From NCBI GenBank assembly GCA_000146465.1, contig CP001950.1: DNA of 64,000 bases; one strand, written 5' to 3'. Shown in pieces: positions 1-60,595 of the stretch. The stretch's first letter is position 1. Each line of letters begins with the position of its first letter. The translations under genes were made by a program, and so were the position numbers. The notes below the pieces were generated by a model. The model saw nothing but the letters and a program-made list of their open reading frames with translations. It made no database searches and was not told the DNA's origin.

Positions 1-1063
1 CTGCATTTTGGTTAGCTTTCTTTTCTTTCCTCTCCTTCTCTTCTTTTTCTTTCCTTTTTTCCTTCCTTTTCTCTTTTTCTTCTCTCCTCTTTCTTTCTTC
101 AACCTCCAGAACAGCCCTATTTATTTCATTCTTATAATCACTTTTATATTCTAAGAATGTTTCCTTCATTAACTCTCCTACAGCTTCCCCTCCATGTTCT
201 CTATCGATCTTTATCAAAAGATCATGATCCAGATAACCAATTGATGAAATCTGATTATTTGCATAATCAGATAATGGTTCTTTGATTTCCATTTTTATTT
301 CTTTAACGTATAACTTTTTCAGACGCATTTTCATAATAAAATTTTCTCTATATTCTTCTCTTTCCCAGAGACTCAAGCACCTATCATATGCCATATTCAG
401 CACTTCAAATATTTGTTTCTCTTCCCTCTTGTTACAAATAAGTTCTCCATGCTTCTTGATCTCTTTGAATTCTTCTTTTTTCTTCTTATTTTCTTCTGAA
501 TCAGGATTAGGTAGGTCCTTTAACTTCCTAATCTCTTCTGAAGCTTTGGACACAAAAAGCTTTCCAAGTTCCTCAAGTGTTCCCTTACACCCTTCGAGTA
601 TTTTTTTTGCTAGATCTCCAAATGTCATCTTGTCCTCCTCATACTTTTTAGAAAGAGAATCAAAGTGCTTATATAGACCACTTTTTTGAAGGACTTCATC
701 TGATAACATCATAGTCGATTCTCTACAAAAGGGAACGTTCAAAAACCCCATACACCACAATGTTAATCTTGGTAATCCCTCAATGATTTTCTTTACATGT
801 TCTCTCTTTCCTTCTTCTATCTCACTGTATTTTGTTGTAGGGAATACTAAAAATGAATTATCATGAATAGCAAATGGATATAATATCACTTTCCGATAGT
901 TGAGTATCTTAGGAGAATTTTCGAATACTTCTCTCCCTGCTTTTCTTTCTGCATCATTCATCTTCCGTCCAATCCTTCTTTCTATATCTTCTATCCCTAT
1001 CTCCAAGGAGCTCCATACTACATTTATCAGACCAAGTAACTCTACTACATATATCCAAATCAT
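1..1063 (-). CDS. Hypothetical protein, partial (C-terminus runs past window start); K/E-rich charged tail (EERKRREEKEKRKEKRKEKEEKERKEKK)
   Basis: Continuous minus-strand reading frame from ATG (revcomp of cat near 1061-1063; MIWIYVVELLGL...) to position 1 without a stop, read by hand. It is absent from the ORF track because no stop lies in the window. The listed + ORF 282..689 is its antisense. No family recognised. Confidence 0.5.
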   Translation of the reverse strand, partial: MIWIYVVELLGLINVVWSSLEIGIEDIERRIGRKMNDAERKAGREVFENSPKILNYRKVILYPFAIHDNSFLVFPTTKYSEIEEGKREHVKKIIEGLPRLTLWCMGFLNVPFCRESTMMLSDEVLQKSGLYKHFDSLSKKYEEDKMTFGDLAKKILEGCKGTLEELGKLFVSKASEEIRKLKDLPNPDSEENKKKKEEFKEIKKHGELICNKREEKQIFEVLNMAYDRCLSLWEREEYRENFIMKMRLKKLYVKEIKMEIKEPLSDYANNQISSIGYLDHDLLIKIDREHGGEAVGELMKETFLEYKSDYKNEINRAVLEVEERKRREEKEKRKEKRKEKEEKERKEKKANQNA

Positions 1064-2146
1064 CTGAAAGGGATTTCCAATCTAAACTTATATACTAGAG
1101 TCCCTTTCTTATCTTCATTAAGGATTCATCATTAATAAAAATATCGATTTTGATAAGTTCCTGACTTCATTCTTCTCCAAATCAAGAATATCCTTTGATA
1201 GTTAGAAACAACCTAATTGCAACTATCATCCATCTACGGAGTAACAATAATAACAACAAACTCTTTATCTAGTACACTAAACTCTTATACTCAACCGCGT
1301 AAGCATAAATCATACTTCTTTATTCCAATCTATAGCTATAGGAGGACCCCTCCACTATATTTATCTTCTTTAACACTTTCTATGTATTTGTAGAATCTTT
1401 ATGAGGAATCTGAAGTCCTTGTTCATTCTTTCCACTGAGAATCGCACTCCTTGAGAATATACAAGCTCCTCCTTTGCAGCTGACTCTTTTGGAAGATCTT
1501 CTCCTAGAGGATCTTACTTCTTCTTTGTTTAGTCTTTCCTTGATCTTTTATTACATCCTCACGGCGCCCGTGGATTCATATCTCGTAAGGATGTTTCTAG
1601 TAACCGACTCAGTAGCCTTAGACATCTTATTACTAATTAAAATCCTTAACAGCTTCCTATCTCCCCTCTTAGCTTCTCATAAATTTTTCTTTCATACCTT
1701 AAACTATCCATTTTAATGATTTCCGAACCTATCTCCCTTATTATAAATTTTTATTTCAATCACTTTTATCCAACTAGCCTTACTTTTTTAAATTCTTCTC
1801 GTATGAATATAGCCTCTATTTCCACTATCCCAGAAACAACTATTTGTAAAAGAAGGTGCAGATAGCTTGTTTTTGCTTTCTTGTTATTTCAAAGTAAGCA
1901 TGGAAAATATCTGCAAACATTTTGAATCTCCGTTAATTTCATATTCTTTATAAAATTTGATATTTAATGGATTTCTTTACCTGTTAATTGTTTTTATTTG
2001 GGATGTACTTTGCACAAATTGCCTCTTATTAGCCGACCTTAATCCAAAGATATATTAAAAAATAAATTCAATTATGGAATAGTAAGTAACTGAAGGAAGA
2101 CAAGGATCAAGAAATAAAAAGAAAATTTCGTATTTTAAAGTTTTAG

Positions 2147-2929
2147 TTAGTTTTCTTCCTCTTGTGAGAGTTTTACCTTGTTCCCAAGAATATTTTTTAG
2201 CTCTTTCCATCCAACATTATCACCACTACTTTCCTCTCTTAAACGGTTATTTCCTCTCAAATCTAGCAGAACTAAACTTTTGCTATCTGCAAGTATTTCG
2301 ATTAACTTCCTGGGAATCTTTCTTAGTCTTTTGTTTTTAGTGAAAATAATTTTCTCTAAGTTCTCTAAATATCCAAGTATTAGAGGCAACGTATTAAATA
2401 AATTTCCTTCGAGATTGAGTATTCTTAGATTGTCTAGAGCACCTATTCCGAAAGGTAATGCTGCAAGTTCATTGTTTCCAAGATCTAACCGAACCAGGCT
2501 ATCCATATTGTGTATTTCTTCGGGTAACATTCTTAGCTGATTATTTCGGACACTTAATTCCTCTAGATGCTCCAGAAGTGTAATTTCCTTAGGAAGATAA
2601 AGGAGGTTGTTGTTGTTGAGGTTTAGTTTTTCTAGTGAAGCCAAGCCTAGTATTGAGTCTGATATGTATTTTAGTTCGTTGTTGCTGGCATCGAGGACTT
2701 TTACAAACGAAAGTTTTTCAAAGTATGGAGGTAACCTGTCTATGTTGTTTCTACTAATATCGAGTTCTATAATTTTCTCTCCTCTCATTATACTCTCAAA
2801 TACCTCTCGAGGTACGTTCCTCTCTCTCCTACCTGAATAGTTTAGACAAACATATTTCTCTCTTCCTCTTAGACTGAAAACTGTGTCTATTATCCACATG
2901 GCACCTATAACACCTGTACCTAGCCTCAT
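2147..2929 (-). CDS. Leucine-rich repeat (LRR) protein, about 9 tandem LRRs
   Basis: Repeated LxxLxLxxNxLxxLP units (LDISRNNIDRLP, LDASNNELKYIS, LNLNNNNLLYLP, LSVRNNQLRMLP, LDLGNNELAALP, LNLEGNLFNTLP). ATG start confirmed (ATG AGG CTA GGT). Confidence 0.7.
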   Translation of the reverse strand: MRLGTGVIGAMWIIDTVFSLRGREKYVCLNYSGRRERNVPREVFESIMRGEKIIELDISRNNIDRLPPYFEKLSFVKVLDASNNELKYISDSILGLASLEKLNLNNNNLLYLPKEITLLEHLEELSVRNNQLRMLPEEIHNMDSLVRLDLGNNELAALPFGIGALDNLRILNLEGNLFNTLPLILGYLENLEKIIFTKNKRLRKIPRKLIEILADSKSLVLLDLRGNNRLREESSGDNVGWKELKNILGNKVKLSQEEEN

Positions 2930-3060
2930 TTCTCTAAGGGCCCAAGCTAGCTCTATAATTGAATTTCTTTAAAATACATGTTATATGCCAATATGAGTTT
3001 AATATCATAGTTCATTATACTTGCCTGTTTTTAACTTCCCTGAATAACATCTTGACACTT

Positions 3061-3750
3061 TTAGAATTTTGACCTATCCGGCCAGTAGTAAGCCAGCGTA
3101 AATAAAATTAACTGAATAAAGTCAATGGCTTGGAGTTGGGCCTTAGATATGTCCCACAAGTCTCTTGTCTCAGATGGTATGGTTTCTTCCCATAATGAGA
3201 GGAGTACCAATGCAATTCCACTTAGAACAAAGCTCCAAGATACCACAAGTGCATTACCTGTTTTTGCATGGAACGCAATTGCAGAGGTTATCATGACAAT
3301 AGCTCCAATAGAAATGATTTTTCCAATACTGCTGCATCTGTAGACGGGGCGGGGGAGAAGTCCCAGACTCTTAAATCTTATATAACTAACAGAAGAGAAT
3401 GTTGCGAATACTTTCAGAATATTCACGTTAGAATTGTATAAACCATATAGAAATACTTCTCCTATACATGTAAACAATCCTGTCATGCACAGGACAATAA
3501 ATGTAAGATATAGAAAAGACTCCTTTGCTCCGTTTGAGGAAACGTTCACACACCAATTTCTTACTATCCAGTAAATCAACATGAATGCCGTGAAAGATGA
3601 ACTGGATACTGCAGCCACGAATTGAAGTATAGTGTTTGTTCCCGTCAATTTATCTGACAGATGAATTGCCGTAGGAACCAGCATGGATGCTAATCCGAGC
3701 GAGTTTGCTAGTACACTCATTTTATTCTTCTTGAAATTCATAATACCCAT
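3061..3750 (-). CDS. Hypothetical multi-pass membrane protein
   Basis: 229 aa with several hydrophobic helices. ATG start confirmed. No family recognised. Confidence 0.45.
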   Translation of the reverse strand: MGIMNFKKNKMSVLANSLGLASMLVPTAIHLSDKLTGTNTILQFVAAVSSSSFTAFMLIYWIVRNWCVNVSSNGAKESFLYLTFIVLCMTGLFTCIGEVFLYGLYNSNVNILKVFATFSSVSYIRFKSLGLLPRPVYRCSSIGKIISIGAIVMITSAIAFHAKTGNALVVSWSFVLSGIALVLLSLWEETIPSETRDLWDISKAQLQAIDFIQLILFTLAYYWPDRSKF

Positions 3751-12254: not shown

Positions 12255-13835
12255 ATGAAAAAGATAAAGGTTGATTGCGGAAGCTTTGCTAATTCAAAAG
12301 TAGTAGAACAACTTTGGGAGATGATCAGTAGGGAGGACATATCTTTGCATCAAAAGTCCTCTATCTTTCTTGAAATGACGGAGTACAAAAAAATGAATGA
12401 AAAGCTTGTCAAGAGAAACAACGAGCTAATTGAAGAGAACGCATCCATGGTATCTATTCTGGAGGCGCAGAAGGAAAATCCAAATAACGCTTCATCCTTG
12501 GGAGAAGAAGCCAAATTCGATGCTGGCTTAAAAATTTCAGAGCTGAACTATGAAATAAGAAGGCTGGATTCCGTTATTTGCGAAATGCAGAAAAGAATAG
12601 CTAGAGACTTGCTTCAAAAAGAAACAAAGGATACACCGGAGCTTGAGAGGACTGAGGAGAAAAAGCATGTTGTTGCTGACAGCACCACGGTTACCAACGA
12701 AGTATACAAGAAAATTACCGAGGACTACGGAGATCTCAAAGCGAAAATGGCAGGGCTGGAGAGTAAGCATAATGAAGAACTATGTGAAAGAGATCAAAAA
12801 ATAGCTAAACTTCAAAGGGAACTGAAAGAAGTAATGTCGAATGCCAAAGACATGGGAGAAAGATTCACCATCTTAAACACAGAAAGTGGGAAGTGGAAAG
12901 AAGGCCTTCAAACGTTTATCGGGAAGGAGTTAGTATTAAACAATGAAATAAGTGGATGTGTGCCAAGGTTAGAAAAAATAGAGAAGGACATGGAGGAAAT
13001 TGCGGCAGGATTAGATGTTTGGATGAAGAAGATAGAGCAGTTGGATGCTGAAAAAAAAGAACTCTGGAAAATAACGGAAAATTATAAGAGTTATGAAAGA
13101 GTAAGGAATGGGAGTGGTACTTGTGATCAAGGATCTTTGGAGGACGAGATCATTAATCTGGTTGAGAGTCTGGACAAAAGTCTGGGTGAGAACAAAGCAT
13201 TAGTTCTAAGGCTCGAGGCAGCACACAAAAAGAACAGAGAATTAGAAAGCGAAATGATTTCCCTAAAGATGGCAAGCTCTGACCTGAGAAGCAGGAATGC
13301 AAAACTTGAATCAGACATAAAACATCTTGGAATGGAGAACAGATATACAACACAAGGGGACTTGGGAGATCATGGTTTGAAGATCCGGAAACTAGAGAGT
13401 TCTCTAGCCGAGTATAACAAAGTAGCTACTGATTACAAGAAAAGATTATATACTTTATCCAAAGAGAAGGAAGAGACCGAAAAGATACTAGAAAGCATTA
13501 AAAAACAAAATAGAGAAATGAGGGATGAGATGTCAAGGATTGCTAAGACAAACTCCCAAATCGAAGCAGAGAACAAAAGGCTAAGCGGAGTGTTGAGAGC
13601 AATTCAAAACGGAGGCTCTGAAGAAGATACAGATCTTGCTGTACAGCTGGAGAGGTACAGAGGCCTTCTTCGCTGTACCCTTTGTGACACACGCTTCAAG
13701 GATACAGCAATAACCAAATGTATGCATTGTTTCTGTGAAGAATGCATAAACTCCAGAATCAGGATGAGAGATCGAAAATGTCCCTCTTGCAATGAGCCCT
13801 TTGCACCTAATGACGTAAAGAAAATTTATCTGTAG
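12255..13835 (+). CDS. BRE1: Bre1-like E3 ubiquitin ligase (long coiled coil plus C-terminal C3HC4 RING)
   Basis: About 450 aa of heptad-rich coiled coil, followed by CTLCDTRFKDTAITKCMHCFCEECINSRIRMRDRKCPSCNEPF at the extreme C-terminus. This is the Bre1/RNF20 architecture. Confidence 0.65.
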   Translation: MKKIKVDCGSFANSKVVEQLWEMISREDISLHQKSSIFLEMTEYKKMNEKLVKRNNELIEENASMVSILEAQKENPNNASSLGEEAKFDAGLKISELNYEIRRLDSVICEMQKRIARDLLQKETKDTPELERTEEKKHVVADSTTVTNEVYKKITEDYGDLKAKMAGLESKHNEELCERDQKIAKLQRELKEVMSNAKDMGERFTILNTESGKWKEGLQTFIGKELVLNNEISGCVPRLEKIEKDMEEIAAGLDVWMKKIEQLDAEKKELWKITENYKSYERVRNGSGTCDQGSLEDEIINLVESLDKSLGENKALVLRLEAAHKKNRELESEMISLKMASSDLRSRNAKLESDIKHLGMENRYTTQGDLGDHGLKIRKLESSLAEYNKVATDYKKRLYTLSKEKEETEKILESIKKQNREMRDEMSRIAKTNSQIEAENKRLSGVLRAIQNGGSEEDTDLAVQLERYRGLLRCTLCDTRFKDTAITKCMHCFCEECINSRIRMRDRKCPSCNEPFAPNDVKKIYL

Positions 13836-23876: not shown

Positions 23877-25346
23877 ATGTTTCTGAAGAAGCTTCTTGCA
23901 ATTGCAGCGAAGAATGAAACGTTAGTCCACACCACAAGTGCATATACAATGTACAACACTACTTTTGAGAACAAAAGAGCTACAAAACTTGCATTTACAC
24001 AACCACCGGTAGCCTACTCATTCTTGAGGAAGATAAAGCATGATAACATAGTTGGAATTTATAAGCTGAATGTGGAGAAAGGATATCTGATTACAAAGAG
24101 GCTGTTTCCTTTTTGCTCTGTGTTCAGAAAGGAAACCAGGGAATTTAACAAATACATATCTTTTAAAATAGCACAGGCAATAGTGTTCCTTCACACTCAA
24201 TGTGGTGTAGTTCACGGAAATATCGTGAAGGATTCTCTTTTCTTTAACGAGGAAGGTGGGATAGTTCTTGGCGGATTTGAAAAGAGCAGAAACAGTAGCG
24301 TATTTGACCAAGACAACATAATGTTCAGTAATCTTGTGAAAGAGCTAACAAATGTTGACACCACCCTTGTTAAAGTTGCCGGAGATGAGAGGTTTTGCTC
24401 AGATATATTCTTAGACCTGGATATCGCATTTTTTGGTTACAAGTCTTTTACTACAGAGCAGAAACTAGATTTCATTTCAAAGGCCAGAAAGAGCAAAAAT
24501 GAATTTGTAGACATCCATAAGAGAAGGATATCATGGATGATTCTTGGAGATATAAACTCTAGCACTCAGAAGGACTTCAAAATACTAGCTGTTGATTTTG
24601 TCCTGGGTTTTGGAGTCTCAGACATGGAGGAGTTTTTACCTCCATTGTTTTCCATATTGGACACGGGTATCAGACTCTACCTTCTTAGAAACTCTGATAA
24701 GTACATCAGTAGAATCGTTTCTTTAGACCCAATAATAAAAAGTCTGTCCCTTGGCATCAAATGTAAAGATAAGGAGCTGAGAGAAGAAACAATTGTGTTT
24801 ATAAAGGAAAACATAAACATGATATCTAAGAAGCAGCAATCTGAAATATTGGAAACAATGCATGGATACATCTTGGATGACCAGGGGATGCAGTTGGTTC
24901 TCAAGTTTCTTTGCGATGTAAGACCTGTTTTCAAGAAAACTGATGTTGTATATAGAATTCTCTGTAAGTACCTTATCCAATCAAAATCAAAAGTAAAGGT
25001 CCTTGCTGCAATGGAAATCTTCTATGAGACCTTTGATAACTTCAAGATGACTACAGAGCTTCTACCTCTTCTCTGTGGATATCTATCAAACAGACATGCA
25101 CAGCCTGCAGTTTTTTCCCTCATAGAAAAAGTCCTTGAGCATCTCAAGGAACACAAAACTGAAATAGTGGACAAGGAGTGGAAGATTGGAAATATCAAAA
25201 ACATCTTTAAGCCAAGATCTCCAGAAGGCCAAGGAACAATTCCTTCCGGAAAGGTAGAGACTCCATCGGAAAAGTCAGAAAATGAGCTGAGCCAGGACCA
25301 TAAGGAATGGAAAAGCCCAGAAGACGGATGGGATGATCCATGGTGA
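23877..25346 (+). CDS. SCY1-like protein (N-terminal protein-kinase-like domain plus HEAT repeats)
   Basis: FLHTQCGVVHGNIVKDSLFF (compare FLHNDCKLIHGNV of SCYL/Cex1) followed by helical repeats. ATG confirmed. Confidence 0.5.
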   Translation: MFLKKLLAIAAKNETLVHTTSAYTMYNTTFENKRATKLAFTQPPVAYSFLRKIKHDNIVGIYKLNVEKGYLITKRLFPFCSVFRKETREFNKYISFKIAQAIVFLHTQCGVVHGNIVKDSLFFNEEGGIVLGGFEKSRNSSVFDQDNIMFSNLVKELTNVDTTLVKVAGDERFCSDIFLDLDIAFFGYKSFTTEQKLDFISKARKSKNEFVDIHKRRISWMILGDINSSTQKDFKILAVDFVLGFGVSDMEEFLPPLFSILDTGIRLYLLRNSDKYISRIVSLDPIIKSLSLGIKCKDKELREETIVFIKENINMISKKQQSEILETMHGYILDDQGMQLVLKFLCDVRPVFKKTDVVYRILCKYLIQSKSKVKVLAAMEIFYETFDNFKMTTELLPLLCGYLSNRHAQPAVFSLIEKVLEHLKEHKTEIVDKEWKIGNIKNIFKPRSPEGQGTIPSGKVETPSEKSENELSQDHKEWKSPEDGWDDPW

Positions 25347-25461: not shown

Positions 25462-26724
25462 CTAATTCTTTTCGATATACATTCCAGCATACTTCGAAAG
25501 GCAAATAAGAGGCATTTGATCTGTCTCCTCACTACTCCATCCTTGGTTAAAAATCCTTTTCTGTTCGTCATTGTATCCAAAGTGGTTGAACAACTCACTG
25601 ACTAACGGCATGTTTGACTTTATAAGTCTCTGAGGATAAGTTTTCAATGGGCCGAGGAACAGAGTTGTTATTCTGTCTTCATGTCTTACATAGTGTTTAA
25701 CACACAGCTTATAGACTATTGGAAATCTCTCTGAATCAAAAGTTTGCATGCTCCTGTGAAGATAGTAGTTTTCAAAAAGAGGACCTCCACAAAACGAACA
25801 CTCCTCTACAGACAGGAGATACCTTATCAGTGGCTTGTCGATACTCCTTCGAACATTCAGATTGTTTCTTACCAAATGCCTTGAGCAAGTTTCCTTGAGT
25901 GTGACATGTCCTATGTACTCTACAGTTTCTTCAGGTGTAAAGTTGCAGGATGTGGCAGCCAACTCTATTAGAAATGGAAGCTTCAAAATTTCCAGTGGGA
26001 TATTCTGAATTTTGTTGTTGGAGACATTCAAGTACTTTAGTCCATAAAGTCTCCCTATAACCGAGGGAAGAACAACAAATAGGTTATTATCTATATGAAG
26101 TGCATTGAGAGCTTTTAGTGCAGAAATTCCCTTGGGAAGAGAGGAAAGAAGGTTCTGGGACAGATTAAGCTCTCTAAGGTTCTTCAGTAGTCCGATTTCT
26201 TCGGGTAGTTTCTGTATCCTGTTCTTTGAAAGGACTAAAACCTTAAGATTCGTCAAGCAGCCTATGTGCTGTGGAAGCCTTGTTAAGTAGTTGCAACAAG
26301 CTTGCAAGATTTTTAAGTCTCGGATCTCTCCTATACCCTCCGTTATCTCCACAACAAATTGTCTGCACATGTATACCTGACTTCTATCTTCTTTAGAATT
26401 ATGGCGTATATTAGTTACTCTTTCTCCACTCGTCAATATCTCCCAGGCTGTCTCCTCTTTGTTAACAACGTTATGATATATATCCATTTCTTTTCCTGTT
26501 ATTTCCTCCAACCTAGGTGATAAAGGAAGATGTCTCGAGACAAGTCTCTCAAAGCTACTGAGAGAAGTAGCTAAATGAACGCTTGGATAACTTTCTACTG
26601 ACTTCGCCACTTTGTACGGGAAAACATGATCTTCAAGATTGTACAGTCTCAAAACACCAGGCGCACTTGGATTAGATCGAGCAATAACCGGATCCCTATT
26701 CATACTACTCTGGGTGTTTCCCAT
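25462..26724 (-). CDS. LRR protein with N-terminal MGNTQSS (consensus N-myristoylation motif MGxxxS) and a Cys-containing C-terminal domain
   Basis: About 10 LRR units (LVLSKNRIQKLP, LNLSQNLLSSLP, LHIDNNLFVVLP, LNVSNNKIQNIP ...), then ETCSRHLVRNN...EECSFCGG...KLCVKHY. ATG confirmed. Confidence 0.7.
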   Translation of the reverse strand: MGNTQSSMNRDPVIARSNPSAPGVLRLYNLEDHVFPYKVAKSVESYPSVHLATSLSSFERLVSRHLPLSPRLEEITGKEMDIYHNVVNKEETAWEILTSGERVTNIRHNSKEDRSQVYMCRQFVVEITEGIGEIRDLKILQACCNYLTRLPQHIGCLTNLKVLVLSKNRIQKLPEEIGLLKNLRELNLSQNLLSSLPKGISALKALNALHIDNNLFVVLPSVIGRLYGLKYLNVSNNKIQNIPLEILKLPFLIELAATSCNFTPEETVEYIGHVTLKETCSRHLVRNNLNVRRSIDKPLIRYLLSVEECSFCGGPLFENYYLHRSMQTFDSERFPIVYKLCVKHYVRHEDRITTLFLGPLKTYPQRLIKSNMPLVSELFNHFGYNDEQKRIFNQGWSSEETDQMPLICLSKYAGMYIEKN

Positions 26725-26975
26725 AGCTTACTGTGGTCTCTCAAATTTAACGTTGTGTTGTTTGATGTTCTTTGACACAATAGGTTTCTGGCTTTCAAAC
26801 AGACTTCCACTTGGAAACAAGTTTCAGCAATTGTATGCTTTATCTCTCCGGGATACATTTCTCCGAAGGGAACTCAGGAACCGCTACTTGTACAAGGAAA
26901 AAAAGGCCTTTATTTGCTAACTTGAAACAATCCTTGATATTGAAAAAATAAAAAGAGATTGAAACAGTGCAAATA

Positions 26976-28175
26976 ATGACCGAGGTTACCAGTGCGGATT
27001 ATTCCAAGCAAGGGTACCATGAAATACCAAAGACAGCATACACTACCCCTATAAATTGGCTCATCCTTTCCGATAACAAGATAAGAGAGGTGCCGGAAAG
27101 TATAAAGGAGCTCAAGACCTTAAGCAGGCTTGCTCTAAACGACAACAGAATTGAAGAAATACACCCTGGAATTGGGTCTCTTGTGGGACTCACATGGATC
27201 GACCTTACTAGAAACCGACTCAGGTCATTGCCCGACGAAATGTCAAATCTAAAAAGAGTATCTGGGCTTGGGCTGAGCGAGAACAACTTCTCCGAAATTC
27301 CCAGATGTATATTCAAAATGACCAATCTCCGGAAGTTTGGCTTTTTTTCAAACAAAATCAGAACAATTCCCAAAGACATCAGGTTTCTCATCAACCTAAT
27401 CAAAATAGATTTATCCAATAATGAGATTTCCTCACTTCCCGACGAATTCTGTGAGCTGAAAAACCTAAACTGGCTGAATCTGTCCAACAATAAACTGCAG
27501 AAGCTTCCTGACGGAATCAACAACTTGGTACAATTGGAGGAACTTGGTCTTGGCGCAAACTGCCTCACCGAGCTACCTGACATGAGTAACCTGAGGAAGT
27601 TGAGGATACTCCCGGTCTTTAAGAACCAGCTGACCCACATAAACCAAAGTATATCCCGTCTCAGCAGCATCGAAAAACTGGACTTCAGCGACAACAACAT
27701 CATTGAATTCCCTGGGCATGTGATAGGTATTCCAACTCTAAGATATCTAAATCTAAAATCAAACAAGATTTCAAAGATAGACCCAAGCACATTCAGAAGC
27801 CGTGTATCTTCAGTCTCAATAATCGATGTGAGTGACAATCTTCTTAGCTGTATCCCTTTGAAATTCTTCAAAACCTTTTCAAATGTAACAGTAATAAGAG
27901 TGGGGGAAAACCCATTTGTTTATCATGAGAGCAAGCCAGCACCCAGCCCGGCCTTAACGGAGCTCTGCTACAACAAATGCCTAAATATGCAGTACAAATG
28001 CGAAAGCTGGATAAGGAAGAGGTACCCAAATGTAAAGAGCTGCGATGCTTGCAGTAAGCTGTTTACTACCCAACCTCATCTGGGATATAGCCTCAGCTCG
28101 GTTGGGGATGGAAGTACATTTGTTGTTGAAAAGATGTTATGCTCTTATGGTTGCTACAAAAACGAATATAAATAA
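26976..28175 (+). CDS. LRR protein (about 14 LRRs) with a Cys-containing C-terminal domain; paralogue of 25462..26724
   Basis: LILSDNKIREVP, LALNDNRIEEIHP, IDLTRNRLRSLP, LGLSENNFSEIP, IDLSNNEISSLP, LNLSNNKLQKLP ..., then ELCYNKCLNMQYKCESWIRKRYPNVKSCDACSK. Track start is GTG; the first ATG (MTEV...) is at about 26976. Confidence 0.7.
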   Translation: MTEVTSADYSKQGYHEIPKTAYTTPINWLILSDNKIREVPESIKELKTLSRLALNDNRIEEIHPGIGSLVGLTWIDLTRNRLRSLPDEMSNLKRVSGLGLSENNFSEIPRCIFKMTNLRKFGFFSNKIRTIPKDIRFLINLIKIDLSNNEISSLPDEFCELKNLNWLNLSNNKLQKLPDGINNLVQLEELGLGANCLTELPDMSNLRKLRILPVFKNQLTHINQSISRLSSIEKLDFSDNNIIEFPGHVIGIPTLRYLNLKSNKISKIDPSTFRSRVSSVSIIDVSDNLLSCIPLKFFKTFSNVTVIRVGENPFVYHESKPAPSPALTELCYNKCLNMQYKCESWIRKRYPNVKSCDACSKLFTTQPHLGYSLSSVGDGSTFVVEKMLCSYGCYKNEYK

Positions 28176-28198: not shown

Positions 28199-30349
28199 TT
28201 ATACTACTCGTCCTGAAGAAATCATGCTTTGCACATTCTCTGAGATCGGATGAAAAAATGCCTGGAGATTGAACTTTTCATCAACTACATTTCCTTCTCG
28301 TACTCCAAGGACAGTTTCACATATGAGAAATAGAATTCTGTCATTTCTTTTAATCAACACCGTTCCATCATCTATTTCATAAGGTTCTTTATTCAAAGAC
28401 ATGCCCTTGAGCTTCAAACATACTGTGTAGAATCTATTGAATGTGCCTTGGTCCACCTTCATTGAATAGATTTCGTAGATGTGCTTGACTTTGGCCTCAT
28501 TATTAGAACTCGTGCATATGAAGTAGATAGAGGAGATAAAGAAGTCTATGTTCTTTATGTTCACATATCCGGTGTTGACAAAGTATATCATCGATCCAAC
28601 GAATGTCCTACTCCTTACAAGCTTTATCTTGGAGTCTTCGTCCAGGCTTATCTCCATGAAGTATTCAATAAACTCCTGTAATAGTCTTTTATCATTGTAT
28701 CCGAGCTGAATTTCAACGTGTTCCTTGCTGCTGCCCTTGTATTTCAAAAGTAAGGGAAGAAGCACATCTACTGGTATCCTCATGTAAGAGAGGAAATAAA
28801 GCATCGGAAAGGTGACATCAAAGTCTAAGACCTGTCTAACAAAAATTGATGAATGCTTGGAATGTGCATACACCAGAAGCTCTGCATCGGATTTCGGGCA
28901 TGATGGCCAGACTTGGTCTTTCAGATGGGCCTTTATCATATCTACTATCATTAACACTTCCTCTGTACTGTTGTTAGCTAATGCTCTCCCAACCAATAAG
29001 TCTCTGTATTCTTTTATATCTTTTCCTTGAAGATATACCAAAGCTGATTGGATATCCGTCCTTATAAGCTCGTTGATTTTTTGCTTGGAAAGTTCTCCGC
29101 AGAAAAAATATTTTAGATAGAACCTTCTCTTCTCTCTACACTCAGGAGGTTCCCCCTTCTCTTTTTTTATCTTCTCCAAGCTCTGCTCCAAAAAGACATC
29201 TGTTCCTTTAAAAGATTTGATACGAAAATAGAACTCCCAGGGTAGATCAAATTCGTTTAGGAGATCAATATATTCCTTTCTTTGGCTGGTAAAAACTCCC
29301 CTGAGAATAAACTCTATTAATCTTAGCAGGCACTCTCTTTCACTACCAGCCTTTGTGTAATTCTTTTGATTTTCCTCGGAGCTTTCTACAATTTCCAACA
29401 ACAAATTTCTGCAAAGATCCATTCCAGACCTAAATATATTGAAGGCTACGGCCCTGACTTTGTGACTTGTGTCAAGAATTCTCTCATAGATATCCAAAGA
29501 GTATTCGATAATATCTTTAAAGCTTGTTTTCTCTAGTAACGTTGCACGGATATCTTCGTTACAATTAGAAAGGATTTTATGAAATATTTCATCGTGTTTT
29601 GGACTGCAATTTTCGGCTAAAATCTTAATTACTCTCTTGTCTTTATCTCCAATGTAAAAGTTACAAAGCTTCTCAAAGTTCTCCTCCGTCATTGCTGCAG
29701 TTAAATACTTCAACTTCCCTTGTCCCCTTATGTTCCTTACACACAAGTGCTCCCTAAAGCTAAGGTTTGAATATACATCTGCATAAACTTTATCTTCAAA
29801 GTTTTCCATAATTAGAGCAACAGCCGGCATCGATATCTCTTTCGTAACCTCAATTATACTACTAATTTCTGGATCCTTTGGTATATGGAGAAGCACAGAA
29901 CGGATTACTTCTCTTGTTGTGTCTTCAGTCCCTTCTTCTATCAGTATGATAATAATCTCTTTCAAATACTTCTTTGCAGTTCCACTGACTACACCTATCA
30001 ATCCACTTAGCTTGGAAATCAAGTCTTTATCCGTCAGAAGACTGGGGATTCTGTATGTGATGAAAGTTTCCAGGTTTATTTTTTCCTTTGGAAGCACTTC
30101 TATAAGCAACTTGAAGAACCTACGTTTTTCCTCTTTACTCAAAAAGCATCTTGGGGCATTTATCCTCAGAACTTCAATCACGCCAAGCAATGTGTCTAAA
30201 ACCTCTTTTCTCAGCTCCATATTTCTCACCAGATGCTGCAGAACGTCTTCATCGACACAAGACCCTTGAGGCATCTCCTTTAGCTTCAGGTACATTCTAA
30301 ATGTCTTATTTTGTGTTTCCGTTCTTTTTGTTCTCTTCAGATTTTCCAT
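28199..30349 (-). CDS. Hypothetical HEAT/ARM-type helical-repeat protein (716 aa)
   Basis: All-helical repeat composition. ATG confirmed. A condensin non-SMC or PDS5-like subunit is conceivable but unsupported. Confidence 0.45.
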   Translation of the reverse strand: MENLKRTKRTETQNKTFRMYLKLKEMPQGSCVDEDVLQHLVRNMELRKEVLDTLLGVIEVLRINAPRCFLSKEEKRRFFKLLIEVLPKEKINLETFITYRIPSLLTDKDLISKLSGLIGVVSGTAKKYLKEIIIILIEEGTEDTTREVIRSVLLHIPKDPEISSIIEVTKEISMPAVALIMENFEDKVYADVYSNLSFREHLCVRNIRGQGKLKYLTAAMTEENFEKLCNFYIGDKDKRVIKILAENCSPKHDEIFHKILSNCNEDIRATLLEKTSFKDIIEYSLDIYERILDTSHKVRAVAFNIFRSGMDLCRNLLLEIVESSEENQKNYTKAGSERECLLRLIEFILRGVFTSQRKEYIDLLNEFDLPWEFYFRIKSFKGTDVFLEQSLEKIKKEKGEPPECREKRRFYLKYFFCGELSKQKINELIRTDIQSALVYLQGKDIKEYRDLLVGRALANNSTEEVLMIVDMIKAHLKDQVWPSCPKSDAELLVYAHSKHSSIFVRQVLDFDVTFPMLYFLSYMRIPVDVLLPLLLKYKGSSKEHVEIQLGYNDKRLLQEFIEYFMEISLDEDSKIKLVRSRTFVGSMIYFVNTGYVNIKNIDFFISSIYFICTSSNNEAKVKHIYEIYSMKVDQGTFNRFYTVCLKLKGMSLNKEPYEIDDGTVLIKRNDRILFLICETVLGVREGNVVDEKFNLQAFFHPISENVQSMISSGRVV

Positions 30350-31230: not shown

Positions 31231-32058
31231 TCAAATCACTATAAGATCTTCGATGCAATGGTAATCATATTGAAGCTTCCAATGCTCGATGGGGTGCCTT
31301 TTGGCGAATGTCATTCCATCTCCAAAGGGGCCTATGAGAAAAAGGGCATAGGGAGGACCCAAAGTATCTATAAGGTTGTTTATAATGCCTCTATCATAAG
31401 GAGACCGGAGGGTGGTTAAACCTTGGATTTTGTTCATGTCCTCTTGTTTCATCTCTTCAATGAAAGTCATATTCATCAAGGCAAGCCTCAACTGCAGATA
31501 GAAGAAAAAAGATGTCATTACAAGGAACACAAGGGATGATATTCCAGATATCACCAGAATGTAGTAATCCCTTCTATGCCGAAGGGGTTTGTTGAAAAGT
31601 AGAACTGCAATGAATTCTATAGACATGTAGAGAAATATGAGCCAGTTTGCTAAGGCTGTAAAGAACAAGAACCTTATAAAATGACCTTGGTTATCATAAT
31701 TCACACAGTTATTGATCCAAAAGCAGTGGTGGTCCATTTTCTTTATGCAATGTCCACAAGAGGAGCAATGATGAGCTCTTTCCGGCTTATGATTTCTGCA
31801 TTTCTTACAGAACCTCTTGATTTCATCGTGGTCTATGAGGTTAATGGCTTCTGAGTTGCTCTCAACATGGCCTCTGTAAAGTATCGAAAGCATTAGATAG
31901 ATGGCCGATAAAGTACTTGAGAGTAGAAGAAGCACAACATAAGTCCCCTTAAATGTGAAGTGAGCCGGGAGGATAATTTCGGACAATGGAGCGATGTATG
32001 TGAATGCAAGTGAAGAAATTAGTAGTGTCATTCTAAAATTCGGCCTTATTTTACCCAT
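31231..32058 (-). CDS. DHHC-type protein S-palmitoyltransferase
   Basis: CKKCRNHKPERAHHCSSCGHCIKKMDHHCFWINNCVNYDNQGHF (DHHC-CRD) flanked by TM helices. ATG confirmed. Confidence 0.85.
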   Translation of the reverse strand: MGKIRPNFRMTLLISSLAFTYIAPLSEIILPAHFTFKGTYVVLLLLSSTLSAIYLMLSILYRGHVESNSEAINLIDHDEIKRFCKKCRNHKPERAHHCSSCGHCIKKMDHHCFWINNCVNYDNQGHFIRFLFFTALANWLIFLYMSIEFIAVLLFNKPLRHRRDYYILVISGISSLVFLVMTSFFFYLQLRLALMNMTFIEEMKQEDMNKIQGLTTLRSPYDRGIINNLIDTLGPPYALFLIGPFGDGMTFAKRHPIEHWKLQYDYHCIEDLIVI

Positions 32059-32149: not shown

Positions 32150-32968
32150 TTAGGTTATCTTGGTGCAGAAAGGAATAAGGTCTTTGTAATCGTCGGCCCA
32201 AAATGGACCGAGAAGTTCGTAAGAATAGAGGATTCTTTTTCCTTCTCTTATGGCCCGTTTTTTCTGGAGCTTCACAGAAAACAAGATTCCGTTTTCAAAT
32301 GGATTTTGGGAAAGAATGAAAGGTATACAGAAAGATGAAGATATGGGGATGTTGACTATATAGTCAAACACCAAGGCTATTTCCAGCCCTTTAATGATCA
32401 AGAATGATCCTTCTTCTTCAAACACAATCTCATTTCTGATTAGCTCTTTTTTCAGCCCAGCAGTGGCTTTTAGACACGAATCAAACAACAGAAAGTTGTT
32501 TTTGAGTTTCACACAAAACTTAGTGTTGTTCTTTTTGTATTCCCTGAACGCTGACTTAATTGCTATGAGATATTCCGAATACATTCTCCTAAAGAGTGGA
32601 GATCCATCATTCTTTGTCTCAAGTTCAAAAGGAAATTTGTACATCTTCTGCTCCTGTGCTTGGATTTCTATGTCTGCCATCAGGACCATGGAAGTGAATA
32701 TTCCATAAAGAATCTTTTCATCCTCAACTTTAGGCTTTTCCTTGTTTCTTACAAGAAGTTCTTCAAAGATAGCATCTTCCATTCGATTATCTCCAACTGG
32801 GCATTCCTCATTGCTTATCTTGATCTTTTTGTACAATGACCGAGATAAAACATCGAACGGATTGTCGCTTACCTTGGATAGGATGTCTATTTTCTCATCT
32901 ATCCCGCTACTTCTATTAAGTTTTCCTCCATCTTCATCTTTTACATTATGATTCCAAGTTCCTTCCAT
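32150..32968 (-). CDS. Hypothetical protein
   Basis: Track ORF extends to 33184 but would overlap RPC82 by about 190 nt with a hydrophobic junk N-terminus. The start was re-set to the internal ATG (MEGTWNHNV...) at about 32968. Confidence 0.35.
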   Translation of the reverse strand: MEGTWNHNVKDEDGGKLNRSSGIDEKIDILSKVSDNPFDVLSRSLYKKIKISNEECPVGDNRMEDAIFEELLVRNKEKPKVEDEKILYGIFTSMVLMADIEIQAQEQKMYKFPFELETKNDGSPLFRRMYSEYLIAIKSAFREYKKNNTKFCVKLKNNFLLFDSCLKATAGLKKELIRNEIVFEEEGSFLIIKGLEIALVFDYIVNIPISSSFCIPFILSQNPFENGILFSVKLQKKRAIREGKRILYSYELLGPFWADDYKDLIPFCTKIT

Positions 32969-32997
32969 GTCTCTGTCAGGCCTATATTTTCCATTTG

Positions 32998-34317
32998 ATG
33001 TGGAGACGACCTGTATCTTACATTCCTGCTTTATTGAAAATTTTTGCCAAGTCCAAAGACATGCCGGGATTAGTAGGAGGGATACTGGAAGATTATGGGA
33101 ATATTCCACAGAAGATAGGTTTTTTTCTAGGGAAAAGAAACGGAAGTACAATAGAATACATAGTTCAAAATACATCTCTAACATACTCTCAGGTCATGCA
33201 TGGCCTTTCCTTGATGATACAACGTAGACTTGTGAGATACTTTCAGTACGAAAAGAAAGTCCATTATGTGTTGGATGTAGATATGGTATACAGGAGGATG
33301 TATTTTGGAATTTATTGTAATCTCATCGAGGATATGTTTGGAGCAGATGCTGCAGAGAAGTTCATGGAGGTTCTGATAGATGGCTTTTCTAAGGCGGATA
33401 TCTTCTTAGAGGAAAAAATAAGGGAGATTATCGATGCTGGAATGATAATCCCAATAGGAAGAAAGGAAGCAAGTCTACTAGTTGCTGGGGCAAGAGATCC
33501 GACAGAATGGATGAGAAGAGCTAGAATGGAGAAGGAAGAGGAAAAAACGGAAAGAAAAAATCGAAAGACAGAAGAAATCCAAAGGTTTTATATTGTTGAT
33601 TTTGGCCTTCTCGATAGCATATTGATAAATAACATGCTCTTATCCTTTGTTAGGAAGAGATATCTATCTAAGGCTGAAAAGATCTACAGGTCGATTCTCA
33701 AGTGCAATCTAGTCTCGATCGACTCCATAATTGGCAGTTTTGAAGAGGAGACGAGTATTTCTCGGGGGGACATTACTTCATGCATCAAATACTTTAGTAA
33801 CTGTGGGCTGCTTCAAAAGAGCTTGGACTGCTCTGAGACTTATTTCAAGGATGAAGATAGTGTAAAAGAAATTCTTGTGGTTGACATCTTAAACCGGATT
33901 CTATCAGAAAACAGTAAGGAAGGACAGAGGATTTTCAATATGATGCTAGAGTACAAAACACTGGAGGATAAAGATATTGTAATCAAATCTCTTATTCCTT
34001 CTTATATGGTCAAGAAATCACTGATTATGCTTCATTCAAAAGGGTTTGTGGTATTAAAGCGCACGGAATCTGGGGAATCAAAGCCGGTCCTCCAATGGGA
34101 GGTAAACACAGGTCGTGCATCAAAAGTTGTTAGAGAGGAAATTAAAGAAATGCTGGAAGTATCTTGGGCCTCGGTAAACCAGAGGTGGAAATACATAGGG
34201 CTCAATGGAGATGGTGAAGACGAAGGATATAAGGCTCTCGACCATATGTTAGGTTTATCATTAGACTTCTTTATTCTTGGAGTTCGAAATATGGACTTCA
34301 AGTCTGAGATGTTTTGA
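32998..34317 (+). CDS. RNA polymerase III subunit RPC82/RPC3-like (winged-helix repeats)
   Basis: N-terminal GLVGGILEDYGNIPQKIGFFLGKRNGSTIEYIVQNTSLTYSQVMHGLSLMIQRRLVRY matches the RPC82 pattern (HFGEIVEKIG...LSxxQV...LIQHNLV). Track start is TTG; the ATG is the next codon (alternative MPGLVGG at about 33061). Confidence 0.5.
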   Translation: MWRRPVSYIPALLKIFAKSKDMPGLVGGILEDYGNIPQKIGFFLGKRNGSTIEYIVQNTSLTYSQVMHGLSLMIQRRLVRYFQYEKKVHYVLDVDMVYRRMYFGIYCNLIEDMFGADAAEKFMEVLIDGFSKADIFLEEKIREIIDAGMIIPIGRKEASLLVAGARDPTEWMRRARMEKEEEKTERKNRKTEEIQRFYIVDFGLLDSILINNMLLSFVRKRYLSKAEKIYRSILKCNLVSIDSIIGSFEEETSISRGDITSCIKYFSNCGLLQKSLDCSETYFKDEDSVKEILVVDILNRILSENSKEGQRIFNMMLEYKTLEDKDIVIKSLIPSYMVKKSLIMLHSKGFVVLKRTESGESKPVLQWEVNTGRASKVVREEIKEMLEVSWASVNQRWKYIGLNGDGEDEGYKALDHMLGLSLDFFILGVRNMDFKSEMF

Positions 34318-36602: not shown

Positions 36603-36890
36603 ATGGACAAAGAGAGCCTCGAAAAGTTTGAAGCCCAGATCTCTGTCCTATCTAGCAAGGAGATTGAGAAGGTCATGAAAAGATTGAGCAAGGATGAGTT
36701 TGATGTGTTTATAGAGATTCTAGAGAGGCACAACATGGACTTGGATAGGGATCTTGAACATGGCAAGAATGAGCTCCTACAAAGATTAGAAAACCATAGG
36801 ATTCTTTTTGAGGATGCTTGGAATGCGATTCCCGACGGGGTTAGAAAGCATTTGACGGGATATTATCAATCCATGAATGATATCCTGTAG
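36603..36890 (+). CDS. Hypothetical small helical protein (95 aa)
   Basis: ATG confirmed. No family recognised. Confidence 0.4.
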   Translation: MDKESLEKFEAQISVLSSKEIEKVMKRLSKDEFDVFIEILERHNMDLDRDLEHGKNELLQRLENHRILFEDAWNAIPDGVRKHLTGYYQSMNDIL

Positions 36891-36981
36891 AAAGGGTTCT
36901 ATTCGCTTGATAATAGTAAATACCTTTTTACTTACGTTTTTGATATTTGGATGGATTAAAGCCCTTAACCTAAGCCTGCAT

Positions 36982-38016
36982 ATGGAAGACTACATTGGAA
37001 TAAGGCTGTTATTTGAGACGTCCAAAGGAGTAATAAGCGGGATGCTTCGTGCCGTTGATGAGAATTCAGGGAAGCTGATTATTGAAGACATGAATGAAAT
37101 GAAGGATGTTCTTATCGAAGACATTCAAAGGCTGGAGATTGCCGAGGAATCTTCTCCAAATCTTTCTGTAGGACATAACTCCAAAGAGGAAAAAAGGCTT
37201 GAAAACACGCCATCTATCGATGTAGATAGTAAAGGAATGGCAGGAAAAGTCGTTTCTGGAAAGCACTTGGTAGGCTATTCTTCGAGAAAGGAGAACCTTG
37301 ACCTGGTATCTGAGAAATCTAAAAGCGGCCAAACAGACGAAAGCAGAACAAGCTATGAGAATGATGATAATGTTCGATCCTCTAGTAAAGTTGGAAGCGA
37401 CAGAAGAAGAGATGGTTATAATCTGGAAACCTCAGAAGAAGACTACTACCGAATGATGGGAAGGGCATTTAGCTACTTTGGGCCTCTTGAAGAAGAGTTC
37501 TGTTCTATTGCTGCACGTCAAACATACAGAATATTCTCTACATACTTCAATAATTCAAGTCTAAGGGTGGAGGTGTTTGTGGCAGGTGACGATGTCTTTT
37601 CAAGTATAGGGTTTATACTTGGAAGGCTACTTCTACACACAGGGAAGATGTCTTCTATAATATGCAATGAAAATCTCTTGAGGAACACAAGGTATAGACA
37701 GTCCTATCTAAACTCGGGAGGAGTTATTACCAACAGACCTGCCCCGGAGCCAAGCATACACATTTATTCTTGCAATAAATCTTTAGTTCCCGCCTGGGCC
37801 AGGAACAACATAAGAGGATCGATCTATTTGGACATGCCAGGGCACAACTCCGAGGAGAAAGAAACAAAAATAGGTCTTTGTTTTGGGTCAATACCAGCTT
37901 ATCATCGAAGATTCAACGGGATAGTGTACTTTGTCGACATAGAGTATCCAGCTCCTCTTTATGAAGAGTTCGGGCTTCAGAAGCCTACAAGAAGTAAGAT
38001 CCACAAGGTAAAGTAG
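36982..38016 (+). CDS. LSm-domain protein with long C-terminal extension, Edc3/Lsm16-like
   Basis: N-terminal Sm-like fold IGIRLLFETSKGVISGMLRAVDENSGKLIIEDMNE. C-terminal RVEVFVAGDDVFSSIGFILGRLLLHTG resembles a degenerate YjeF-N Rossmann-like region. Track ORF 36877 has a junk N-terminus overlapping the upstream gene; the start was re-set to MEDYIG at about 36982. Confidence 0.4.
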   Translation: MEDYIGIRLLFETSKGVISGMLRAVDENSGKLIIEDMNEMKDVLIEDIQRLEIAEESSPNLSVGHNSKEEKRLENTPSIDVDSKGMAGKVVSGKHLVGYSSRKENLDLVSEKSKSGQTDESRTSYENDDNVRSSSKVGSDRRRDGYNLETSEEDYYRMMGRAFSYFGPLEEEFCSIAARQTYRIFSTYFNNSSLRVEVFVAGDDVFSSIGFILGRLLLHTGKMSSIICNENLLRNTRYRQSYLNSGGVITNRPAPEPSIHIYSCNKSLVPAWARNNIRGSIYLDMPGHNSEEKETKIGLCFGSIPAYHRRFNGIVYFVDIEYPAPLYEEFGLQKPTRSKIHKVK

Positions 38017-59938: not shown

Positions 59939-60595
59939 ATGGGGGATGTTGTTTACATAGTCCATAGACAGCTTGAAAGAATACCAACCATTCCAGAGCA
60001 TGCGAGAACAGTTGACCTCCGCCGGAACAACATATCGGTTATGGCTTTGAACAAGGCAGAGTCTGTCGAGTATCTTGATCTATCAGACAACAGAATAAAG
60101 GTGATTTCCGACCTTGAAAATGTTCCGAATCTAAAGGTGTTGGATCTAAGCTACAACCTAATCACAGAAATTTCCATTCCCCGCATGGGTCTCTCGGAGC
60201 TGTATCTGATTTCTAATGACATTTCGACGATCCATGGGCTAGATCTTCCCTGCATCAAGAAGCTAGACATGGCCGTAAACGACATCTGTCAGATTGAAAA
60301 CCTCGAGAATTGTGCAACTCTAGAAGAGCTCTACCTCGGAAGCAACAGAATAAGAACAGTAGAAGGACTGTCCGAGCTCAAAGATTTGAAGGTATTGGAT
60401 CTTCAAAACAATGAACTTGAAGTGGTAGATTGCTCGGCAGTACCTTGTAATGTTGAAGTTCTTCTTCTTGGAGAGAACAGAAACCTTCAAATGATTGAGA
60501 ATCTCGAGTCATTAAAGAATCTCCGGATTCTGGGGCTGGAGAAGACAAGAGTGCCTTCTGATCTATTTGAGGGGTGTTTTACTGTTTGGCGCTAA
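59939..60595 (+). CDS. SDS22-like LRR protein (PP1 regulatory subunit type, 22-residue LRRs)
   Basis: LDLSDNRIKVISDLENVPNLKVLDLSYNLITEIS...LYLGSNRIRTVEGLSELKDLKVLDLQNNEL is the SDS22-type LRR periodicity. ATG confirmed. Confidence 0.55.
   Translation: MGDVVYIVHRQLERIPTIPEHARTVDLRRNNISVMALNKAESVEYLDLSDNRIKVISDLENVPNLKVLDLSYNLITEISIPRMGLSELYLISNDISTIHGLDLPCIKKLDMAVNDICQIENLENCATLEELYLGSNRIRTVEGLSELKDLKVLDLQNNELEVVDCSAVPCNVEVLLLGENRNLQMIENLESLKNLRILGLEKTRVPSDLFEGCFTVWR

Follow-up and report, generated by a model that had tools for sequence, protein, structure and literature searches.

Within a 64,000-nt stretch of the Encephalitozoon intestinalis genome (assembly GCA_000146465.1, contig CP001950.1; the whole stretch is called the window below), in which genes are densely packed and the G+C content is about 40%, we analysed a head-to-head pair of genes for leucine-rich repeat (LRR) proteins. 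Gene A (25462..26724, minus strand) encodes a 420-amino-acid (aa) LRRC58-like LRR protein that starts with MGNTQSS and is built from an N-terminal region, about 6-7 LRRs, a putative BC-box/cullin-box/zinc-hairpin tail and a 70-aa extension. Gene B (26976..28175, plus strand) encodes 399 aa from its ATG, with about 12-13 LRRs followed by a tail, and its open frame starts upstream of this ATG, at a GTG at 26967. Both genes were delineated with open reading frames (ORFs), aligned orthologues (15 for A and 18 for B, which gives 16 and 19 sequences with the E. intestinalis proteins included) and AlphaFold models, whose mean predicted local distance difference test (pLDDT) values were 78.5 for A and 92.5 for B. 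An earlier note, made from the DNA letters alone, had described a divergent pair across a spacer of about 250 nt; we found the two ORFs at exactly the positions it gave, separated by 251 nt (26725..26975). The LRR families were the sole Pfam matches in the two proteins, neither tail is covered by any Pfam family, and an NCBIfam scan of both proteins gave nothing besides generic LRRs.

The gene A product is 100% identical to the annotated E. intestinalis protein, which itself begins at Met8. The NCBI model has 413 aa and omits the first seven residues, MGNTQSS (26704..26724, minus strand); that of E. hellem is longer at the N-terminus by 34 aa that are not conserved. Both starts look like start-codon mis-annotations, and in both an MGxxxS motif is hidden. 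The proposal in the earlier note that this is an N-myristoylation consensus was borne out by the alignment: M1, G2 and S6 were invariant in 16/16 sequences from Encephalitozoon, Ordospora, Nosema, Nucleospora and Hepatospora, whereas positions 3-5 and 7-10 are free to vary. The PROSITE-type pattern for N-myristoylation is G-{EDRKHPFYW}-x2-[STAGCN]-{P}. All 16 sequences match it, with no forbidden residue at positions 3 or 7. This conservation suggests that the gene A product is probably N-myristoylated and hence would work at a membrane. The Hepatospora orthologue begins MGAFCS, in which the Cys near the predicted myristoylated Gly could be palmitoylated. A DHHC palmitoyltransferase gene (31231-32058, minus strand) lies about 3 kb away from the pair, and there is no evidence tying it to them.

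The next part of A, residues 8-120 (26365..26703), is a conserved non-LRR region recognized in the alignment and the model, and it contains the conserved block SNPSAPGVLRLYNLEDHVFPY in the 16-sequence alignment. Residues 1-120 were modelled as mostly helical with low pLDDT and do not look like a PH domain in the model; searches of this N-terminal region against PDB and Pfam matched nothing. The LRR domain (residues about 124-262; 25939..26355; Pfam LRR_8, E=8.7e-18) has seven beta-strands in the model, at residues 124, 139, 162, 185, 208, 231 and 254. The first helix of the tail, TLKETCSRHL (residues 275-284, 25873..25902; helix 276-286 in the model), fits [STP]LxxxCxxx[LIVA], the BC-box consensus of Elongin C-binding receptors. 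In the A family it reads [ST]LxExCxRx[LIV], with L276 and C280 at least 90% conserved and E278 and R282 invariant, and it is close to the BC box of VHL, TLKERCLQVV. A second helix, IDKPLIRYLL (residues 295-304, 25813..25842; 297-304 in the model), is cullin-box-like by its alignment with LRRC58. It is followed by the zinc-hairpin part of the tail (25681..25800), which was defined by its ECxFCGGP motif, its predicted strands (320-329 and 332-341, lying between two knuckles) and its invariant putative zinc ligands C309, C312, C341 and H344 (CxxC…CxxH), to which another invariant His is added. The family-specific C-terminal extension (residues 349-420; 25465..25680), with TYP..L, SELF and MPLICLS motifs, is conserved in all A orthologues and lies outside the part of the tail that can be aligned with LRRC58.

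In B the LRR domain spans residues 5-311 (26988..27908; Pfam LRR_8, E=1.7e-41, eight stretches), with strands from residue 6 to residue 308. The first LRR starts at about residue 5, so B has no N-terminal extension and no extra domain. A BC-box-like helix, ALTELCYNKCL (residues 326-336, 27951..27983), was identified from the alignment and the model, in which it covers 327-336; L327 is invariant in the 19 sequences, C331 is kept in 15/19, and the family reads [AS]LxxLCxxxxLN. The second helix (residues 343-351, 28002..28028; 344-349 in the model) contains a W that is conserved in most orthologues, and its position suggests that it may serve as a cullin box. The remainder (residues 356-399; 28041..28172) would form a C4 zinc site around a beta-hairpin, followed by a C-terminal helix, as indicated by the alignment and the model (strands 368-375 and 381-388, helix 391-398). 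C356, D357, C359, C389, S390 and C393 are invariant in this part, the putative ligands being C356, C359, C389 and C393.

After the last repeat, the conserved order of elements is the same in A and B: an N-P-F type cap, a helix, a second helix, a CxxC knuckle, a long beta-hairpin and a second knuckle, which is C-x2-H in A and C-x3-C in B. The order helix, helix, knuckle, long hairpin, and knuckle plus helix is also predicted in both models. That the two proteins end in a common Cys-rich domain had been claimed before, and BLASTP was blind to it: the two tails showed no similarity (E=1.3), and at full length only the LRRs were aligned, at 23-32% identity. Comparison of the tail profiles with hhalign gave an alignment of 84 columns (E=4.7e-5, score 33.8) with all motifs in register, in which the two BC boxes are paired. 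Column-shuffled B profiles scored 12.6±2.6 with a maximum of 20.0, none of 150 reached 33.8, and the reversed profile scored 11.1. We conclude that the tails of A and B are homologous, which confirms the earlier observation of a shared domain.

Single-sequence and tail-profile searches of PDB returned only C2H2 zinc-finger or Tim10 matches, which we discarded as chance matches produced by the CxxC…F pattern. When the B-tail profile was run against 1.84 billion representatives, the full-length matches were microsporidian B orthologues and a few others, including P0207 and P0211; multi-stretch matches, which look like C2H2 zinc-finger repeat proteins by their likeness to the PDB search, were treated as noise. 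P0207 (L003 3001-4284; GCA_040384145.1, JAWVHD010001945.1) is a 427-aa protein from a non-microsporidian, gene-dense and G+C-richer eukaryotic genome, with a few LRRs, a B-like tail (SLLELC…CLSC…CCSPSC) and about 200 additional C-terminal residues. It shows that the tail module also exists outside microsporidia, in a different arrangement.

The fit of TLKETCSRHL to the BC-box consensus led us to compare A and B with two human LRR proteins that have a C-terminal BC box, LRRC58 and LRR1. LRRC58 is a substrate receptor of the cullin-RING ligases CRL2 and CRL5 for the cysteine dioxygenase CDO1. In its structure, the BC and cullin boxes are followed by a loop with bound zinc; this loop sits at one end of a 30 Å sheet of two strands (the 'C-cap'), and the other end of the sheet caps the LRRs and helps substrate binding (PMC13156300). 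Our LRRC58 query, residues 208-371, has one mismatch to 9T7V chain B. BLASTP of the A tail against LRRC58 (E=0.012) was too insensitive, and profiles were needed. With hhalign, the A-tail profile matched the LRRC58 tail with a probability of 94.5% (E=8.1e-8, 91 columns) and a score of 50.7; 100 shuffles gave 13.1±2.5, and 0/100 reached that score. The alignment spans the cap, the BC box, the LLRYL cullin box, the CGG zinc knuckle and the second Cys. Its paired segments are TLKETCSRHL/TLLELAARTI in the BC box, PLIRYLL/NLLRYLG in the cullin box (where IDKPLIRYLL of A is aligned with LPGNLLRYL), ECSFCGGPLF/CPNPKCGGVYF and PIVYKLC/PLMHYLC. In hmmsearch, the A profile gave 18.4 bits against LRRC58 with the tail alone and 41.1 bits with the last LRRs plus the tail. 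In the PDB profile searches, LRRC58 was, among the matches listed, the only protein aligned through the A tail (A 135-342 against 120-332). These profile comparisons show that the A tail is homologous to the LRRC58 tail and make A the LRRC58-like member of the pair.

LRR1 is a CRL2 receptor that ubiquitylates the CMG helicase. In Xenopus Lrr1, the LRRs are followed by a BC box, a Cul2 box and a C4 treble-clef finger, the ligands of which are C356, C358, C400 and C404 and at whose second knuckle the C-terminal helix starts (PMC8682755). The LRR1 query, residues 299-414, matches 7PLO chain O exactly. A search with the human LRR1 tail returned only vertebrate last-exon fragments, and the resulting profile is shallow and its comparisons weak. 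The hhalign alignments with LRR1 were weak, with E about 0.002-0.013 over all comparisons, but colinear (alignment A3, E=0.0024 over 96 columns; alignment A4, E=0.007), the scores of the A and B tails were both above those of 100 shuffles, and the A BC box TLKETCSRHL was aligned with TLLESSARTI of LRR1. In a Foldseek search with the A model, 7shk_L (Xenopus Lrr1) had the highest TM-score among the matches listed (TMq 0.41, TMt 0.58, 270/282 residues), although generic LRR proteins had better E-values.

Each of the two genes has one orthologue per species. B orthologues have a constant length of about 400 aa and extend from Encephalitozoon to Nematocida, Edhazardia and Dictyocoela, with 43-94% identity; across the phylum (Nematocida, Edhazardia, Dictyocoela, Pancytospora, Vairimorpha and others) the identity is 43-58%. 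A orthologues were found only in Encephalitozoon, Ordospora, Nosema granulosis and relatives, Nucleospora and Hepatospora, and at the B locus of a Nematocida species no A gene adjoins B. The genes are also head-to-head in Hepatospora eriocheir (LTAI01000104.1), with the B ORF at 613..1752 on the minus strand, A at 2057..3370 on the plus strand and a spacer of about 300 nt. The B orthologue of this species (L001 613-1752, minus strand) is annotated as a 252-aa 'FLII', and its frame runs upstream to at least 379 aa, which adds N-terminal LRRs. In Nosema granulosis the block of five genes is kept (Ras GTPase, a 479-aa protein, A, B and a 736-aa protein), except that A is inverted.

The earlier note had taken the pair for a locally duplicated, possibly lineage-expanded family. 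This view was not supported: the pairing is already present in Hepatospora and Nosema granulosis, and single-copy, conserved LRRC-type orthologues, which the note itself had named as a refuting outcome, are largely what we found. In hhalign, the A tail scored 50.7 against human LRRC58 and 33.8 against the B tail. It is therefore nearer to the human protein, and the A/B split probably predates microsporidia. A recent tandem duplication was rejected on these two grounds, the greater nearness of A to LRRC58 than to B and the presence of the pair in Hepatospora. A and B are old paralogues of a eukaryote-wide superfamily; their pairing is ancient and the family is not expanded.

We propose, with a probability of roughly 60%, that A and B, both ancient and single-copy, belong to a eukaryotic 'LRR + BC-box/cullin-box + zinc-hairpin' superfamily and act as substrate receptors of a cullin-RING ligase, and that they are probably old housekeeping ligase subunits. 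A feature of this superfamily seen in both proteins is that the LRRs lie directly N-terminal to the box region (Pfam LRR_8/LRR_14 matches extend to about residue 260 of A and about residue 311 of B, and the models agree). The substrate would be bound jointly by the concave face of the LRRs and the tip of a zinc-stabilised beta-hairpin capping the last repeat. The amphipathic BC-box helix would dock on Elongin C or a Skp1-like adaptor, the next helix would bind one of the three Encephalitozoon cullins at its N-terminal domain, and the substrate would be ubiquitylated by Rbx1 and an E2. Three cullin-like proteins have been reported in Encephalitozoon (PMC10158259). A would act at the membrane via its predicted myristate, and B, which has twice the repeats and no extra domain and is kept by all microsporidia, would be soluble. 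Our data show the anatomy, the conservation and the homology of the tails (A with B, and A with LRRC58), whereas binding of zinc, of Elongin C and of a cullin, the lipid anchor and the ligase activity are inferred. CDO1, the substrate of LRRC58, is unlikely to be that of A. A more remote possibility is that A is a rewired LRRC58-type receptor: in a parasite that lacks cysteine catabolism, a myristoyl anchor and new terminal regions would have turned it away from cysteine dioxygenase and towards a membrane-proximal substrate.

Several points weigh against this proposal. Position 10 of the B BC box is Cys, not Leu/Ile/Val, and when the second helix of B was examined, a recognisable cullin-box proline signature was absent. 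The B tail matched LRRC58 and LRR1 weakly (hhalign E about 0.01-0.02). Because this direct similarity is weak, B is placed in the superfamily mainly by its homology to A, its invariant C4 ligands and its predicted topology. The zinc finger of Lrr1 touches neither Cul2 nor EloC (PMC8682755), so that a conserved zinc module alone proves no ligase function. LRRC58 co-evolves with CDO1 (PMC12589099), and a reduced parasite may be without CDO1, in which case the substrate of A would be different. A literature search found no mention of an Elongin C, Elongin B or N-myristoyltransferase of microsporidia. Furthermore, Vairimorpha necatrix (CP142728.1), which keeps the Ras, 480-aa and B neighbours, has an RNase_T-family gene at the syntenic site of A (L005 2751-3848), and A seems to have been lost or moved in Vairimorpha.

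The main rival reading takes A and B for non-enzymatic scaffolds of the SHOC2/RSU1 type, for example in Ras-family GTPase or PP1 signalling, with A held at the membrane by its myristate and the tail serving only as a zinc-stabilised LRR cap that has lost any link to a ligase. We regard this as possible, at perhaps one chance in four. By structure and sequence, the LRR parts best match SHOC2, RSU1 and LRR proteins of bacteria, 'SHOC2' is also the name that several pipelines assign to B orthologues, and a Ras-family GTPase gene lies two genes away in a neighbourhood that is conserved in Nosema and Vairimorpha; the doubt over Elongin C in microsporidia and the unconvincing cullin box of B also favour it. 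However, similarity between LRRs is generic, and many families reach 23-35% identity. SHOC2 carries about 20 LRRs and an N-terminal region and is not known to have a C-terminal zinc module. B differs from it in each of these features, with about 12-13 LRRs, no N-terminal extension and a zinc tail, and an orthology of B to SHOC2 was rejected; the similarity of the two is LRR-generic. In A, moreover, the BC-box Leu/Cys and the cullin-box LxRYL are conserved family-wide and aligned with the functional boxes of LRRC58; a purely structural cap would hardly account for this.

A more specific version of the ligase reading, which we consider doubtful and less probable than the scaffold, makes B the microsporidian counterpart of LRR1, that is, a cullin-ligase receptor without a PH domain that would ubiquitylate Mcm7 and unload the CMG helicase at replication termination. 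It would suit the universal presence and slow evolution of B in a phylum that has retained little more than its core machinery. The layout of B is that of the C-terminal part of LRR1 (LRRs, box helices and a treble-clef-like finger), and its C4 site and LCSxxCY motif are closer to LRR1 than to LRRC58. Against this, the similarity of B to LRR1 is weak (hhalign E about 0.007-0.013), B has 12-13 repeats against 8 in Lrr1, and it lacks the PH domain that is needed for CMG ubiquitylation in Xenopus (PMC8682755). If B were the equivalent of LRR1, replisome disassembly of the LRR1 type would be older than Metazoa, with the fungal SCF-Dia2 route as the derived state.

The earlier note had counted four LRR genes in the window. 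All four exist: the other two are a 260-aa LRR gene (2147..2929, minus strand) and a 218-aa SDS22-like LRR gene (59939..60595, plus strand). A tail of the A/B type was sought in both of their proteins and found in neither, so only A and B form a family, and the other two genes belong to LRR classes unrelated to them. The first reading of the locus, a recently duplicated, lineage-expanded LRR family that is secreted or host-exposed and takes part in host interaction, drew on the number of LRR genes in 64 kb and would recall the LRR families expanded in some microsporidia such as Nematocida (10.1101/2023.08.27.554996), but it is highly improbable given one orthologue per species for each gene with synteny to Hepatospora, a phylum-wide identity of B that is typical of core genes, the human homologue of A (LRRC58) and the two tail-less LRR genes. 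A secreted effector family was rejected; the N-termini of A and B are not signal-peptide-like.

No Pfam family matches the genes that flank the pair, at 23877-25346 (plus strand, 489 aa) and 28199-30349 (minus strand, 716 aa); in Nosema granulosis the flanking positions are taken by proteins of comparable length, and the 480-aa one is found there in V. necatrix too. Proteins with matches to the Pfam domain-of-unknown-function families DUF5095 and DUF5096 are encoded at 32150-33184 (minus strand) and 36877-38016 (plus strand). The window also contains genes for a telomerase reverse transcriptase (41014-43482, plus strand), a DNA polymerase of family B that has the C4 zinc finger of DNA polymerase delta (55741-58665, plus strand) and a 526-aa protein that bears a RING finger at its C-terminal end (12255-13835, plus strand). 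In V. necatrix there is a telomerase gene close to B (L005 7820-10558).

The public names of A and B are generic or misleading and include 'leucine repeat-rich protein', 'SHOC2', 'LRRC57', 'PIRL7', 'FLII' and 'Toll-like receptor 1'. The ubiquitin system of microsporidia has been described as virtually unexplored (PMC12324444), and our analysis provides two concrete candidate substrate receptors of cullin-RING ligases for these organisms. It extends the LRRC58/LRR1-type architecture past animals to a fungal-related lineage, and the corrected start codon of E. intestinalis A reveals a conserved lipidation signal. It also raises the testable question of how replisome disassembly or other tasks like those of LRR1 and LRRC58 are carried out with a eukaryotic genome that is among the smallest.

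Compared with known systems, the scaffolds of the SHOC2/RSU1 type have the same LRR subtype as A and B and are the top structural matches for the repeats, but they are not known to have a BC box or zinc tail, and the likeness is limited to generic repeats. Receptors of the pVHL type with a BC box and VHL box use another substrate-binding domain, whereas in A the box is C-terminal to LRRs. The order of elements in LRR1 (7PLO chain O, 7SHK chain L), namely LRRs, BC-box helix, Cul2-box, Cys-knuckle, beta-sheet and CxxxC at the start of the C-terminal helix, matches that in A and B, and LCSYGCY of B resembles FCSLGCY of LRR1 (a CSxGCY motif). The N-terminal PH domain of LRR1 is essential; in B there is none, and the N-terminal region of A is not PH-like in the model. 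In LRRC58 the zinc loop and the sheet come in the same order as in the zinc-hairpin part of A. A differs from LRRC58 in its MGxxxS motif and in the 120 aa of non-LRR sequence at its N-terminus, which take the place of the first LRRs of LRRC58; the second knuckle is CxxH in A and CxxxC in LRRC58, and the C-terminal end is a conserved 70-aa extension in A and a serine-rich stretch in human LRRC58. Some unusual features of the pair are the lipid anchor motif, the putative CCCH site and the extra C-terminal region in A, and the lack of any accessory domain in B.

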